This document shows positions 33 through 24,927 of a stretch of 64,000 bases of DNA, piece after piece. Where the stretch lies: sequence record MT446420.1, one strand, 5' to 3'. This DNA is from Escherichia virus TH54. The notes below the pieces were generated by a model. That model saw only the letters and a program-made list of their open reading frames with translations. It was not told the origin of the DNA and searched no databases. Within the stretch, counting starts at the first letter, position 1; each line of letters opens with the position of its first letter. The position numbers were made by a program, and so were the translations under genes.

Positions 33-100
33 ATTCTCCGTTTGTTTATTTGGTAACTCAGTATGGAATCATTATGCATCATGACCATCTGGTTGTACAC
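33..100 (-). promoter_or_regulatory. early promoter cassette (-35 GTGTAC, -10 CATAAT) with conserved 5' leader
   Basis: minus-strand GTGTAC-N18-CATAAT, then leader GATTCCATACTGAGTTACCAAATAAACA..GGAG..ATG shared with cassettes at 19.5k, 20.0k, 20.9k and 57.5k. Confidence 0.55.
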
Positions 101-146
101 ATATACTAAATAAAAATACTTAATAAAACCATAAAGGAGAAAGTTT

Positions 147-893
147 ATGATTTTATCCGGAAGAACTGTTGATGAACTCAATGAAAAAGTCCAGGCTGCC
201 TTGGCTAATAATTGGTATTTGTTTGGTTCGACTATGGTGTTGCCGAATACCCCTACGGATAGCAAAGAGCGTTTTTTCCAAACTATGTCCAGCTCGGAAA
301 CTCAGATACCGGGTCCACCTGGTCCCAAAGGAGAACCGGGTGTACCAGGACCAAAAGGAGACCCAGGTGGGGATGGAAAATCTTCTTATCAGATATGGCT
401 TGACTTGGGAAATACAGGAACTGTTGATGATTTTTTAACTGATACAGCAGGAAAGAGGGAAAAATCCGAGGTGTTTTGGAGTGGTATAAACGTTCTATTA
501 ACCAATGGTGTGACTTCAAACATAATTAGTGTTTTAAAGGGGATTCCACCGACTGCAGGGACTCTATCTCCGTTTTTTAGAACCACTGATGATAAGTTGT
601 GGCCATATAACCAAGACAGAAGCCTAATGTTTAAACTCAACCTTATTGGTAATTTTGCAGGAGCCTCGCAAGCTCGAAGTATAACATTAAATTTCGTTGG
701 AACCAACGGAAACACTTATATACAGAATCGTCCGGAAAATGCTACAGATATTTTGTCTTTTACAACGTTCTTTAGCATTGATAAAGATGGGGCAATGGCA
801 ACCAATGGTACAGCTATAACTGTTATGCCAAATGGCGGCAACTTTACAATAACCTCTGCATTGTTAGTAGCCGAACAAACAGTGACTTCATAA
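147..893 (+). CDS. collagen-like repeat protein with tail-fibre-like motif, opposite strand to neighbours
   Basis: 248-aa ORF, AGGAG 7 nt before ATG; eight G-X-Y triplets (GPPGPKGEPGVPGPKGDPGGDG) followed by KSSYQIWLDLGNTGTVDDFL; GC hairpin just past stop. Confidence 0.5.
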   Translation: MILSGRTVDELNEKVQAALANNWYLFGSTMVLPNTPTDSKERFFQTMSSSETQIPGPPGPKGEPGVPGPKGDPGGDGKSSYQIWLDLGNTGTVDDFLTDTAGKREKSEVFWSGINVLLTNGVTSNIISVLKGIPPTAGTLSPFFRTTDDKLWPYNQDRSLMFKLNLIGNFAGASQARSITLNFVGTNGNTYIQNRPENATDILSFTTFFSIDKDGAMATNGTAITVMPNGGNFTITSALLVAEQTVTS

Positions 894-895
894 AC

Positions 896-920
896 AAAAA
901 AGGGCCGTATGGCCCTTAGA
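896..920. terminator. intrinsic terminator hairpin GGGCCgtatGGCCC, A-run upstream and T's downstream
   Basis: perfect 5-bp GC stem with 4-nt loop; reads as hairpin plus U-tract on the minus strand. Confidence 0.5.
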
Positions 921-1111
921 TTGCACTCCAAAAATTATGGAATCTTATAGTATTGATAGCCCAGTTAACAAACCTGCGAGTTTGCTTGGGAGTTGGTTTG
1001 CATATGTACTTGATATTGACCCGACGACCAGTTTCACGACAGACTGCTTCGAGATACCAGCGGCGACCTTTATGAGGTCTTCCATACGATAAGAAGACCT
1101 TGATTTCCTGG

Positions 1112-2122
1112 TTATCGATAATAGGAATTGTGGTTGTCAAGATATACCTCCTCAACAAACTTGTCCCAGAACTTCATGTCCACCTTCGCAGGCATACCAT
1201 TCTTAGCAGCCCAGATGGCATTAGTTTCGACTTCATCAACGATAGCTTCAAGTTCAGCCTGTACATCTTTAAAAGCATGTAACCCTTGTTTGATTTCAAG
1301 GATAAACGGTGCTGTTCGTAAAGGATATTGAAGGTCACCGGTCATATAAATTTCCTTCAGCTGATATCCAGCTCGATAAGCATGACTCAATGCTTTCCAG
1401 TCAATACCTTCATTCGCTTCGGCCTTACGAGCACGTTCACCATATTCGGCATCAAGTTTATTCAGAGATTGCTTGAGCTCGATTAAAGACAGAGTAGTTT
1501 GGTATTTACGACCGAGGACAGTATAGAACGTTTGAGGACCTGTTTTCTCATGGTTATGAAATACCCATTCACAGAACTCGTTTTCAGGGAGCCGGTGCTT
1601 AATATCTTCTACCTTAGTACGTCGTTGCTTAGTAGAACCATCTTCTTGATAATCGACCCATTGTTCAGGAATCTGGTTAACGATTTCCAATACACCACGC
1701 AGTGCAGCCAATCGAGAACCTTTAACACCATATTTGGAAGCTTGCTTGCGGACATACCCCAAATAGGCTTTCATGTTGGTTGTATAGAACCGCGAACGGT
1801 TATCCTGAATAAACTTCCATACATCTGGTAAATCGGATTTGACAACCAGGTCAGCCGGCGTGTGAATCATGTCCAGAGCAACGGTTTCGCCTTCGGCCGC
1901 CAGTTTAAAGAAATATTTCAGACTATAAAGTTCATGGTCAACATCATCTTTTGTATTTTTGGTAGCCGTGTTATTCGTGTTCAGGTTGGTATGGTTCATC
2001 GCCGTCCCAAGTAGAATATCACGAGGATGTGGAACAAAGATTTCTTTAAAATCGACATCAGATTCTGGGGTACTTGTTCCATAAAGGTGGCTACCGAAGT
2101 AGCCTTTCATAATAGTTTTCAT
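1112..2122 (-). CDS. nucleotidyltransferase-fold protein (Pol-beta superfamily motif GS-x10-SDVDF)
   Basis: 336 aa from MKTIMKGYFGSHLYGTSTPESDVDF; GAGGA SD; 4-nt overlap with upstream gene. Confidence 0.6.
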   Translation of the reverse strand: MKTIMKGYFGSHLYGTSTPESDVDFKEIFVPHPRDILLGTAMNHTNLNTNNTATKNTKDDVDHELYSLKYFFKLAAEGETVALDMIHTPADLVVKSDLPDVWKFIQDNRSRFYTTNMKAYLGYVRKQASKYGVKGSRLAALRGVLEIVNQIPEQWVDYQEDGSTKQRRTKVEDIKHRLPENEFCEWVFHNHEKTGPQTFYTVLGRKYQTTLSLIELKQSLNKLDAEYGERARKAEANEGIDWKALSHAYRAGYQLKEIYMTGDLQYPLRTAPFILEIKQGLHAFKDVQAELEAIVDEVETNAIWAAKNGMPAKVDMKFWDKFVEEVYLDNHNSYYR

Positions 2123-2571
2123 TCTTTGTCCTCGAAGTGGATTACTGGGCACATCTTAAATTTACGAGCTTTAATATATTGAATGAAAACATTTTCTTTA
2201 ATTTCCTTTCCTTCACGTTTAGCTTTAATGCGTTCCCATTCTTTTTCTTCTTTACGTAAATCGTACCAGGCCCATAAATTCATTATACAATATACAATAC
2301 CGACGGCTACCGCTAGAATAAGAGCCAGTGTAACCAGTCCTAAAATAAAACCTAAACTTAAGCCAACAGGAGTACTCAATACAAAGAACTGCTCCAATAT
2401 ACCAGCACCTGCAACAGTTAAGCCGAAAATAGTACTACCTGCAAGCACAGAACACATAAAGCACACCCAAACCATTTTCCAGAAGTATGCGCATAATGAG
2501 CGTGGACGTGAATAACTGGCATAAAAACGGTCGTGTAATTTAACGTGCCAAGAGTTTGAATTGATAATCAT
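2119..2571 (-). CDS. predicted membrane protein, about 3 TM helices
   Basis: 150-aa ORF with long hydrophobic stretches (VWVCFMCSVLAGSTIFGLTVAGAGIL; LGFILGLVTLALILAVAVGIVY); AAGGAAA SD. Confidence 0.5.
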   Translation of the reverse strand: MIINSNSWHVKLHDRFYASYSRPRSLCAYFWKMVWVCFMCSVLAGSTIFGLTVAGAGILEQFFVLSTPVGLSLGFILGLVTLALILAVAVGIVYCIMNLWAWYDLRKEEKEWERIKAKREGKEIKENVFIQYIKARKFKMCPVIHFEDKE

Positions 2572-2581
2572 AATATTTTCC

Positions 2582-23888: not shown

Positions 23889-23889
23889 T

Positions 23890-23945
23890 AGTAGCTCCAG
23901 TAGTTGATGGGATAATTATACTGCAACTATCCCATCGCGTACATT
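23890..23945 (-). promoter_or_regulatory. early promoter (-35 ATGTAC, -10 TATAAT inside GGGATAG inverted repeat)
   Basis: same architecture as 23580-23633. Confidence 0.5.
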
Positions 23946-24243
23946 ACATTTTTGAACCACGAATTACACCATAAGCGGCGAAGTCGTCAGAAATATCTTT
24001 AGGAGAGTTCTTACCAGTTTCAATGAAGGCAATGCTTGACTTCTGACTAAAAGAGGTAATTTTGTTATAGTTGGAGTCAAGGAAGGTATAACCATTTTTA
24101 CGCAGCTGGTCAAAGTCTTCAGCGTCGCCTTTACCTTTGAAGTCAACCCATTTGTAGGTGTTTTTCTTCTGAAGGCCCAGAGGCCAGGTTTTTGCTTCTG
24201 CCAGGTAATTGTTTTCTACCAAAAATTCATGAAAAGTTTGCAT
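23944..24243 (-). CDS. internal-protein-like, divergent CTS
   Basis: 99 aa starting MQTFHEFLVE. Confidence 0.5.
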   Translation of the reverse strand: MQTFHEFLVENNYLAEAKTWPLGLQKKNTYKWVDFKGKGDAEDFDQLRKNGYTFLDSNYNKITSFSQKSSIAFIETGKNSPKDISDDFAAYGVIRGSKM

Positions 24244-24251
24244 TTGAAATC

Positions 24252-24524
24252 CTATTTTAGATAAATTGCATATTTTTTATAACCAGCCGTCTCATGACGG
24301 AGACCCTTGTCATTGGCAAAACGCTCAATGTTATTAATTTGGTTCTGGTCAAGTTCTGAAATGTCAAACGCGAAAAAGTTGCGTTTGTTGCCAATTGTTA
24401 TATGGTCAGTTAAGTCAATGCTATACAGGTGATTGATATTGTCAATCATAGCTTTGACTGCTTTACTAATTTTTACTTCTTCATTCAGTTGGGACTCGTT
24501 GAAAAATTCATTGAAAGTTTTCAT
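24252..24524 (-). CDS. internal-protein-like, divergent CTS
   Basis: 90 aa starting MKTFNEFFNE. Confidence 0.5.
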   Translation of the reverse strand: MKTFNEFFNESQLNEEVKISKAVKAMIDNINHLYSIDLTDHITIGNKRNFFAFDISELDQNQINNIERFANDKGLRHETAGYKKYAIYLK

Positions 24525-24532
24525 AAGAAACC

Positions 24533-24865
24533 TTATTTATAAAGTTTTGCCAGTTCTTTACGTCCGCGAGCAGACATAATAAATTGTTCATCGCCAATTT
24601 TAAAATAAGCCATACCGCCGTCAACAGCGATACCAATTTCTTTAGTACCTTCTTTGCCTTTCCACTTGCCACCAGATTTCAGGACAGCTTCAACTGCAGC
24701 TTTGGAATATTTGGACGTTTGAAAACGTTCATTACCAATCTGAAAGAAAACACCATCTGCATTTTTGGTTAAACCAAATTTCAGAGAGCCTTCACTATCA
24801 TCAATTGATTTGGTCTCATTGATGGCGGATTCGGCTAAAAACTCGTTGTAAGTCTTGATGTTCAT
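24533..24865 (-). CDS. internal-protein-like (ipI locus position)
   Basis: 110 aa from MNIKTYNEFLAE; immediately upstream of 57B as ipI is in T4. Confidence 0.55.
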   Translation of the reverse strand: MNIKTYNEFLAESAINETKSIDDSEGSLKFGLTKNADGVFFQIGNERFQTSKYSKAAVEAVLKSGGKWKGKEGTKEIGIAVDGGMAYFKIGDEQFIMSARGRKELAKLYK

Positions 24866-24867
24866 TT

Positions 24868-24927
24868 TAACTCCGTTTGTTCGTTGGTGTAGGAACATAA
24901 TACTGCACCTACACTCATTTGTACACT
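24868..24927 (-). promoter_or_regulatory. early promoter (-35 GTGTAC, -10 TATTAT inside GTGTAGG inverted repeat)
   Basis: minus strand GTGTACAaatgagtgtaggtgcagTATTATgttcctacac. Confidence 0.5.

Follow-up and report, generated by a model that had tools for sequence, protein, structure and literature searches.

Do the early genes of a T4-like phage carry copies of a common promoter module, and are genes traded at such modules? The question is raised by 64,000 nucleotides of Escherichia virus TH54 (sequence record MT446420.1; the whole stretch is called the window below). A preliminary description of it counted seventeen or more early promoter cassettes, several with a near-identical leader, and assigned them to the promoter-early stem-loop (PeSL) elements that are thought to drive gene shuffling in T4-type phages. 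By megablast, the window belongs to Gaprivervirus (T4-like Straboviridae), and its nearest relatives CJ20, P896, VR20 and SP18 show 93-97% identity with many indels. According to the annotation transferred from VR20, bases 1 to about 26k hold early and accessory genes on the minus strand, in the order nrdC.11, tk, vs, regB, an internal-protein (IP) cluster, denV, e, ORFans, two tRNAs, a second IP cluster, 57B, 57A and gene 1, while the plus-strand structural genes come after this block. We find that the repeated cassettes are real, with minor corrections, and that they are very probably T4-type early promoter cassettes of the PeSL kind, read by the host sigma-70 polymerase.

The architecture first proposed, GTKTAC, a spacer of 17 or 18 nt and YATAAT, is enriched in the window: there are eight exact matches, all on the minus strand, and allowing one mismatch gives 15 minus-strand matches against about 3.5 expected in shuffles. 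Nearly all of these directly precede a Shine-Dalgarno (SD) sequence and an ATG. Among the promoter patterns scanned, the T4-type pattern alone was informative; the generic sigma-70 scan (TTGACA/TATAAT) was rejected as non-discriminating, with 51 matches against 56 expected in 1-18.5k. Curation gave 16 convincing cassettes, each called here after the position at which its -35 box begins (100, 4539, 8454, 10604, 11258, 11719, 14252, 18782, 19595, 20110, 20478, 20997, 23633, 23944, 24926 and 57570, all on the minus strand), and two weaker candidates (15529 and 10154), which makes the original count about right. Within 55-85 nt, the layout passes from an A/T-rich tract to the -35 box GT(G/T)TAC and, after 17-18 nt of spacer, to the -10 box; a conserved start region and a short leader rich in A follow, and then the SD sequence GGAG and the ATG. 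The SD sequence and ATG form the 3' end in 16/16 cassettes, with 25-51 nt from the -10 box to the ATG, and the upstream flanks are A/T-rich, e.g. aaaaagta and aaaaataa. The accessory region at 1-25 kb holds 15 of the 16, and the remaining one is in the variable gap between genes 23 and 24; the motif scan of the window placed none in the 26-57 kb structural block. The open reading frames (ORFs) downstream of the cassettes are without a Pfam match, and the PHROGs to which they belong are of unknown function.

Two types can be distinguished: in type 1 an inverted repeat surrounds the -10 box, and in type 2 the promoter is followed by a shared leader. A stem-loop brackets the -10 box in nine cassettes, in three more (4539, 19595 and 20997) a GC hairpin or a terminator is found at the -35 box or upstream of it, and 100, 8454, 11258 and 57570 are without any stem. 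The cassettes and one of the weaker candidates are as follows.

27-100, minus strand: type-2 cassette, stemless, with -35 GTGTAC at 100-95, -10 CATAAT at 76-71, the shared leader, GGAGAATAAAA at 39-29 and ATG at 29-27; it precedes a 68-aa ORF truncated by the window start.
4479-4578, minus strand: terminator hairpin (4578-4551) and degenerate type-1 promoter (GTTTAC at 4539-4534, N18, TACTAT), with the 3' arm TATCCCATC alone, a leader ending ..ACTGAGGAGAATACA and ATG at 4481; orthologue of the T4 mobD.5 terminator-promoter.
8395-8454, minus strand: regB promoter cassette, GTGTAC-N18-TATGAT, 3' arm TATCCCATC only, stemless, ATG at 8397.
10548-10604, minus strand: type-1 cassette of an IP gene (MKTYQEFI start), arms TGATGGGATA/TATCCTATCA around TATAAT, predicted RNA hairpin of -14.9 kcal/mol.
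11196-11258, minus strand: early promoter cassette of an IP gene (MKTYQEFI), stem not convincing.
11661-11719, minus strand: type-1 cassette of denV, arms TGATAGGGT/ACCCTATCA, orthologous to the T4 denV promoter.
14193-14252, minus strand: type-1 cassette, arms GTGGGACC/GGTCCCAC around CACAAT, predicted RNA hairpin of -19.6 kcal/mol.
15471-15529, minus strand: weaker candidate early promoter, GTATAC-N18-TACTAT, then GAGGAG and ATG at 15473; adjoins a variable segment.
18708-18782, minus strand: type-1 cassette of the e.6 homologue, GTTTAC-N18-TAGTAT, arms GGGAAC/GTTCCC.
19522-19600, minus strand: type-2 cassette with CATAAT, the shared leader, GGAGAATAAAA at 19534-19524 and ATG at 19524; a GC hairpin AGGGGG..CCCCCT holds the -35 box GTATAC in its loop.
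20036-20110, minus strand: type-2 cassette, stem weak (TGGAAT/ATTCCA, 6-7 bp).
20406-20478, minus strand: hybrid cassette in which GTGGGATA/TATCCCAT, arms of type 1, flank TATAAT and are followed by the leader of type 2 and by GGAGAATAAAA (20418-20408).
20914-21057, minus strand: intrinsic terminator (21057-21042) and type-2 cassette with GTGTAC at 20997-20992, CATAAT, the shared 5' leader and a variant 3' part.
23574-23633, minus strand: type-1 cassette of the trna.4 homologue, arms ATGGGATA/TATCCCAT, leader ACTGAGGAGAATAAA with a candidate RegB/S1 site at 23586-23576.
23886-23944, minus strand: type-1 cassette of an IP gene, perfect 9-bp arms GATGGGATA/TATCCCATC, predicted RNA hairpin of -16.8 kcal/mol.
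24863-24926, minus strand: type-1 variant before an IP-like gene, GTGTAC-N18-TATTAT, arms GTGTAGG/CCTACAC.
57502-57570, minus strand: type-2 cassette between genes 23 and 24, stemless, preceding ORF 57223-57504 and the terminator 57221-57196.

How similar are the type-2 cassettes to each other? The 26-nt sequence GATTCCATACTGAGTTAMCAAATAAA is found five times on the minus strand (45-70, 19540-65, 20055-80, 20424-49 with two mismatches and 57515-40 with three), while none is expected, and a sixth copy of the leader at 20.95k keeps the first 18 nt and has diverged in its 3' part. The near-identical leader of the preliminary description, and the hybrid that it placed at 20.4k, are both borne out. 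Motif discovery had been suggested as a check, and an unbiased repeat search puts this six-copy family first (D1); it also recovers an SD/leader family, the type-1 families and the repeat coding for the IP N terminus (D4-D6). Between the six copies there is little or no difference from the -10 box through (G/T)AT(T/C)(C/T)CATACTGAGTTA, and they agree again at CAAA.AA, GG.. and TAAAATG, with unrelated spacers; the identity extends about 25-45 nt past the hexamers. The leader RNA is predicted to be unstructured. The genes behind the leader had been called unrelated, which is true of the rest, found in different PHROG families, but not of ORFs 19607-20038 and 20491-20916, which have a common C-terminal domain (44% identity over 71 aa). 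In Pfam, the ORFs behind type-2 leaders were unmatched.

The leader occurs in 47 phage records, with 8-13 copies in most full-length Gaprivervirus records and 1-4 copies in a few Morganella, Providencia and Dhakavirus phages, and at least 12 different ORFs follow it in VR20, VR25, VR26 and MP1. Its invariant start region ATACTGAGTTA is conserved from Gaprivervirus to the Morganella and Providencia phages. A scan of IMG/VR with GATTYCATACTGAGTTA gave 29 sites with a -10 box directly upstream, and those assigned to a genome are in VR20, VR25, VR26 and MP1. Most of the 120 matches in that scan are unrelated conserved coding sequence in environmental contigs and were discarded. The 17-mer GATTTCATACTGAGTTA was also set aside: in about 90 environmental viral contigs (L006-L125) it lies within the coding sequence ..GCGATTTCATACTGAGTTACCCCAGT.. 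and is a coincidence, not a cassette.

The exact sequence GGAGAATAAAA occurs four times in the window, all in cassettes, against 0.4 expected, and ends the leader in the trna.4 cassette and in three copies that are of type 2 or hybrid. The target of RegB/S1 in T4 early mRNAs is the 11-nt GGAGRAYARAA (Durand et al., 2006, PMC1702504), and the leaders with GGAGAATAAAA present a candidate site of this form that is predicted to be single-stranded, with regB itself in the window (7939-8397). The putative site covers only the last 11 nt of the leader and not the invariant ATACTGAGTTA.

Are genes gained, lost or exchanged at the cassettes, as had been proposed? We compared the window with seven relatives, and these show indels and swaps with junctions in or at cassettes. 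For example, ORF 20112-20408 is absent from SP18, UPEC01, TH40 and TH55, and in these four relatives the flanking alignments at the junction 20085|20406 overlap by 50 nt inside the shared leader; the leader of cassette 20036-20110 is one of the two direct repeats flanking this indel. In the SP18 junction sequence, the hybrid promoter is joined via the leader straight to the next gene. At 10550-11169, IP genes are deleted between copies of a shared N-terminal coding repeat, with overlaps of 32-43 nt; the peptide MKTYQEFI(T/N)E begins the ORFs at 10550, 10870, 11198 and 23888, and variants of it those at 24243, 24524 and 24865. ORF 18786-19214 is absent from six relatives, with the junction in the spacer of the e.6 promoter (18768/18769). 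The denV promoter is the place of an insertion of about 285-300 nt in VR20, TH55 and TH44, which in VR20 is the annotated ip5. In the second IP cluster the common junctions of gene swaps are at 23642-23647 and 23859, and the upstream edge of the trna.4 cassette is such a recurrent junction. A module of about 590 nt, found as an insertion in relatives, is bounded by a 13-nt terminator-tail repeat GGGCTTTTTTATA, and other indels end at plain gene boundaries. Taken together, the whole-gene indels and swaps have junction overlaps of 25-50 nt, most of them within the shared leader or the repeat coding for the IP N terminus, and the cassettes are, as these alignments have it, frequent crossover sites and not the only ones.

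Two observations on the same region may be added here. The minus-strand ORF 18786-19214 has no promoter of its own, and a GGGGC-GAAA-GCCCC hairpin stands directly before its SD sequence. At 15815-16300 (minus strand), three consecutive small ORFs have a conserved 42-nt junction, namely the C-terminal ..SWVSSSYEC, the stop codon, AAGGAAATAAA and the ATG; TH40 misses one unit of this tandem, with a junction overlap of 25 nt, which is a second kind of repeat-mediated indel.

Then, is the copy between genes 23 and 24 a recent insertion, as the preliminary description suggested? The comparison says otherwise: the ORF is old at this locus, and it is the leader that was exchanged. The ORF is present in 31 records, and Dhakavirus MX01 and IME341 have a 62%-identical orthologue in the same place, where the -35 box and the flank before it agree with the window but the -10 box and leader differ (TACTATagacctatcaaaacatgaggag); in TH57 the ORF and its promoter are lost. 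Similarly, the gene behind cassette 100 has a 79%-identical RB69 orthologue (ORF102c) at the same locus with the leader agacctatcaaaaca. Because the RB69 and Dhakavirus orthologues at the same loci carry other leaders, it follows that in the Gaprivervirus lineage the type-2 leader took the place of older ones in front of genes already resident, and this indicates conversion among resident promoters, besides the movement of ORFs. Next to this cassette, on the plus strand, 57611-58891 and 58892-60175 are tandem genes for gp24-like vertex proteins (mutual identity 55%, both PF07068), and Dhakavirus MX01 has a single copy at the corresponding position.

Could the likeness of the cassettes be due only to functional constraint and vertical descent, that is, to strong promoters and ribosome binding sites with no role in gene shuffling? 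The denV, trna.4, e.6 and regB promoters precede the same genes as T4 early promoters, and from this same placement these type-1 promoters are vertically inherited; at denV and trna.4 the leader and the first codons also align with T4. The GGAGAATAAAA block, as a putative RegB/S1 site, would have a function of its own, and the ORF between genes 23 and 24 has long been resident. However, the type-2 identity reaches far beyond the hexamers and is lineage-specific, with another leader at the RB69 and Dhakavirus orthologues, and the junctions overlap in direct repeats that are mostly the shared leader or the IP coding repeat. Constraint and descent alone are therefore an unlikely explanation.

We now turn to the type-1 cassettes, where one arm lies in the spacer and the other just past the -10 box. 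An inverted repeat of 6-10 bp surrounds the -10 box at 10604, 11719, 14252, 18782, 20478, 23633, 23944 and 24926, and a weak one is seen at 20110. The inverted repeats reported earlier thus hold at 10.6k, 11.7k, 14.2k, 18.7k, 23.6k, 23.9k and 24.9k, but not at 4.5k and 8.4k, where the 3' arm TATCCCATC has no partner; no stem brackets the -10 box in cassettes 100, 11258, 19595, 20997 and 57570. The arm sequences vary by site (GATGGGATA, GATAGGGT, GTGGGACC, GGGAAC, GTGTAGG), each being complementary to its own partner. Over the cassettes of the window the best stem averages 6.2, compared with 4.9 when partners are swapped, and none of 5000 permutations reaches the observed value. When T4 and RB69 are included, 18 of the 43 promoter candidates have a perfect stem of at least 6 bp, against 2.5 with shuffled spacers and 3.3 with swapped partners. 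T4 has the same design, a stem around the -10 box, at ipI, ipII, ipIII, denV, trna.4, e.6 and e.7, and the arms in VR20 (AGTATGGG/CCCATACT) and in Morganella phage MP1 (GTAACTCAG/CTGAGTTAC) are each adapted to the sequence past the -10 box. Since the arms differ between sites and genera yet stay complementary, the pairing itself is, on the evidence of these sequences, under selection. The loops are 7-15 nt long, and the predicted energies of the type-1 RNA hairpins span -11 to -19.6 kcal/mol (z between -2.3 and -4.65).

To what known elements do these cassettes correspond? A PeSL consists of an A/T tract, an early promoter, a stem-loop, an SD sequence and an ATG, with the stem-loop most often in the interval from the -35 to the -10 box or in overlap with the latter, and the elements of the T-even IP locus were termed PeSL-like (Arbiol et al., 2010, PMC2839356); the class was later extended to T4/PST (Comeau et al., 2014, PMC4122927). 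The assignment of the window cassettes to this class is sound. They combine a putative sigma-70-type promoter, an associated stem-loop, an SD sequence with start codon and a hyperplastic location, in agreement with the definition in PMC2839356, and a close match is found in RB49. There, the homologue of window ORF 19219-19524 is ORF198, at 46% identity, and upstream it has the PeSL TTGACAccggatcGGGGATATagCATAATATCCCCatcgaaac, with TTGACA..GGGGATATagCATAATATCCCCatcgaaac, which nearly equals GATGGGATA..TATAAT..TATCCCATCaac of the window; its arms GGGGATAT/ATATCCCC resemble (G)ATGGGATA/TATCCCAT(C). The PeSLs of RB49 and phi1 have in common with the window cassettes the promoter, the placement of the stem-loop, the SD sequence and ATG, the hyperplastic regions beside ORFans and the motif-bounded indels. 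However, the window has a T4-type -35 box GT(G/T)TAC instead of TTGACA, its stems are less G/C-rich, and it includes a stemless type-2 subfamily with about 45 nt of shared leader. The PeSL class is further characterised by stem-loops that end or attenuate transcription coming from upstream and by mini-circles excised through recombination between PeSLs; the window hairpins are predicted to be stable but have no U tract.

The PeSLs of T4/PST and KVP40/nt-1 (PMC4122927) are alike in their TTTACW-N17-TAYWAT-type promoters, in stem-loops or terminators near indels, and in terminator-then-promoter composites, which the window has at 4.55k, 19.6k and 21.05k; their stem is described there as just upstream of the promoter, whereas in the window and T4 the commonest stem brackets the -10 box. 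The conserved promoter, leader and capsid-targeting-sequence elements of the T-even IP loci (Repoila et al., 1994), as far as they are portrayed in PMC2839356 and PMC4122927, are matched by the IP clusters at 10.2-11.3k and 23.6-24.9k, in which cassettes are followed by MKTYQEFI. A conserved upstream promoter and leader, together with an N-terminal capsid-targeting sequence of about 10 aa, stands on otherwise unrelated ORFs, and these IP genes, like those portrayed there, are swapped or deleted among relatives with junctions in the repeats. The window differs from that portrayal in that its cassettes also precede non-IP genes (denV, trna.4, e.6 and ORFans). A literature search found no published description of such cassettes in Gaprivervirus; the element is of a known kind, PeSL-type, here in a genus where it was previously undescribed. 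The Rfam scan of the window matched two tRNAs only, and the leaders and hairpins belong to no family in it.

What could the stems and leaders do? Transcription would start about 7 nt past the -10 box. Because the 5' arm lies upstream of this inferred start, the hairpin should form in read-through RNA only: RNA from the cassette's own promoter would miss the 5' arm and be unstructured, while read-through RNA from the upstream gene would fold into a hairpin of -11 to -20 kcal/mol, which may work on upstream transcription as an attenuator or insulator, or make the upstream mRNA more stable at its 3' end. The leader end GGAGAATAAAA would serve both as ribosome binding site and as the RegB/S1 cleavage site that shuts off early mRNAs, and the promoter-leader modules would double as homology patches for crossover. 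Put forward tentatively, as a possible but not a probable reading, the -10 hairpin may be a selected, genus-spanning discriminator of read-through from local RNA, and ATACTGAGTTA a regulatory module spread by conversion. The ATACTGAGTTA module could define a co-regulated set of immediate-early ORFans.

In T4, a hairpin encloses the promoters of e, soc, 49 and I-TevI, with the effect that translation is possible from the shorter transcript alone. The window cassettes are similar in the placement of the 5' arm and the predicted restriction of the hairpin to read-through RNA, and in other T4-like phages the denV and regB promoters also pair the 5' arm with the SD sequence, which may in some phages confine translation to RNA from the gene's own promoter. 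In the window, however, there are usually 7-20 nt between the end of the 3' arm and the SD sequence, and direct sequestration is not general; it was ruled out as a general role of the window stems, partial pairing being seen at denV alone, where an outer CTCC can pair with the GGAG of the SD sequence. As an observation in its own right, in many other T4-like phages the denV or regB spacer just after the -35 box pairs over 8-12 bp with the SD region of the gene itself, e.g. CTCCTGTAG with CTACAGGAG (loci L133, L136-L138, L141-L143 and L162 upstream of denV, and L210 at 31363 for RB69 regB), where read-through RNA alone could mask the ribosome binding site.

Several points weigh against these readings of the stems and the junctions. 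Of the 16 cassettes, seven are without a stem across the -10 box, three of them with a GC hairpin or terminator upstream instead. After the type-1 hairpins comes CAACTAC or a like sequence and not a U tract, for which reason they are not canonical intrinsic terminators, and the terminator scan of the window does not list them; separate canonical terminators are found at 4578-4551, 21057-21042 and 57221-57196. Mismatches of the G·T and A·C kinds, which should differ between RNA and DNA stems, number 2-3 vs. 0 inside the stems and 2 vs. 4 at the flanks, too few cases to decide between the two. The sense fold is stabler than the antisense fold in 15 of the 18 hairpins, but well-folding random segments of the same strand are equally biased (p=0.47). 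As for the junctions, viable whole-gene indels must end intergenically, so some coincidence with cassettes is expected without any special mechanism.

Might the stems then act as DNA, by hairpin or cruciform extrusion that aids promoter opening or targets recombination enzymes? Their consistent position on the -10 box would suit such a role, the tests of strand asymmetry gave no preference for RNA over DNA, and the PeSL stem-loop has been speculated to be a target of recombination proteins (PMC2839356). The junctions, however, are in leaders, spacers and N-terminal coding repeats, not specifically in stems. Moreover, cruciform extrusion is disfavoured by loops of 7-15 nt, the very range of the window stems, and a role as DNA appears very improbable. 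Equally hard to credit is that the repeats are operators at which a dimeric phage or host DNA-binding protein switches off early promoters: although the arms form a palindrome with the -10 box at its centre and GATGGGATA/TATCCCATC recurs at 10.6k, 20.4k, 23.6k and 23.9k, the window has at least five arm sequences that are unrelated, and further ones occur in T4, RB69 and MP1, all complementary and without a common half-site, and the loop length is inconstant.

In addition, some features of the window were noted outside the cassettes. At 147-893 (plus strand), between nrdC.11 and cassette 100 in the early region, lies an ORF of 248 aa with a collagen-like G-X-Y stretch and an Sf6-type tail-needle-knob domain (PF16532, E=3e-32); the VR20 alignment has no counterpart, and the left junction is near the upstream edge of the -35 box of cassette 100, its position being approximate. 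Promoter-like sites with TTTGCTT at the -35 position, resembling a MotA box, are found at 26898-26926 (plus strand) and 61327-61299 (minus strand); they have the extended sequence TATAATGGTTCTAGACC in common and may be middle promoters with a common start region. The 164-nt non-coding gap at 10087-10250, upstream of the vs.8 homologue, holds sequence like the N-terminal coding part of T4 vs.8 and also a weak GTTTAC-N18-ATTAAT site; it may be a truncated or frameshifted gene start. Finally, a 44-nt direct repeat with 91% identity (4060-4103 and 4245-4288) lies over the starts of two adjacent small ORFs that look like tandem paralogues, and the segment 3902-4275 is replaced in VR20, TH40, TH55 and TH44.

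The cassettes of TH54 do not overturn the current understanding, and they offer a clean case of how T4-like phages trade accessory genes through short standard modules that are expression signals and homology patches at once. To the published picture they add crossovers pinned to a 50-nt shared leader, leader replacement at resident genes, which is concerted promoter evolution and not the movement of ORFs alone, and a -10 stem that covaries across three genera. They could aid the annotation of early transcription units and the prediction of immediate-early, RegB-controlled ORFans in the Gapriverviruses of phage therapy.

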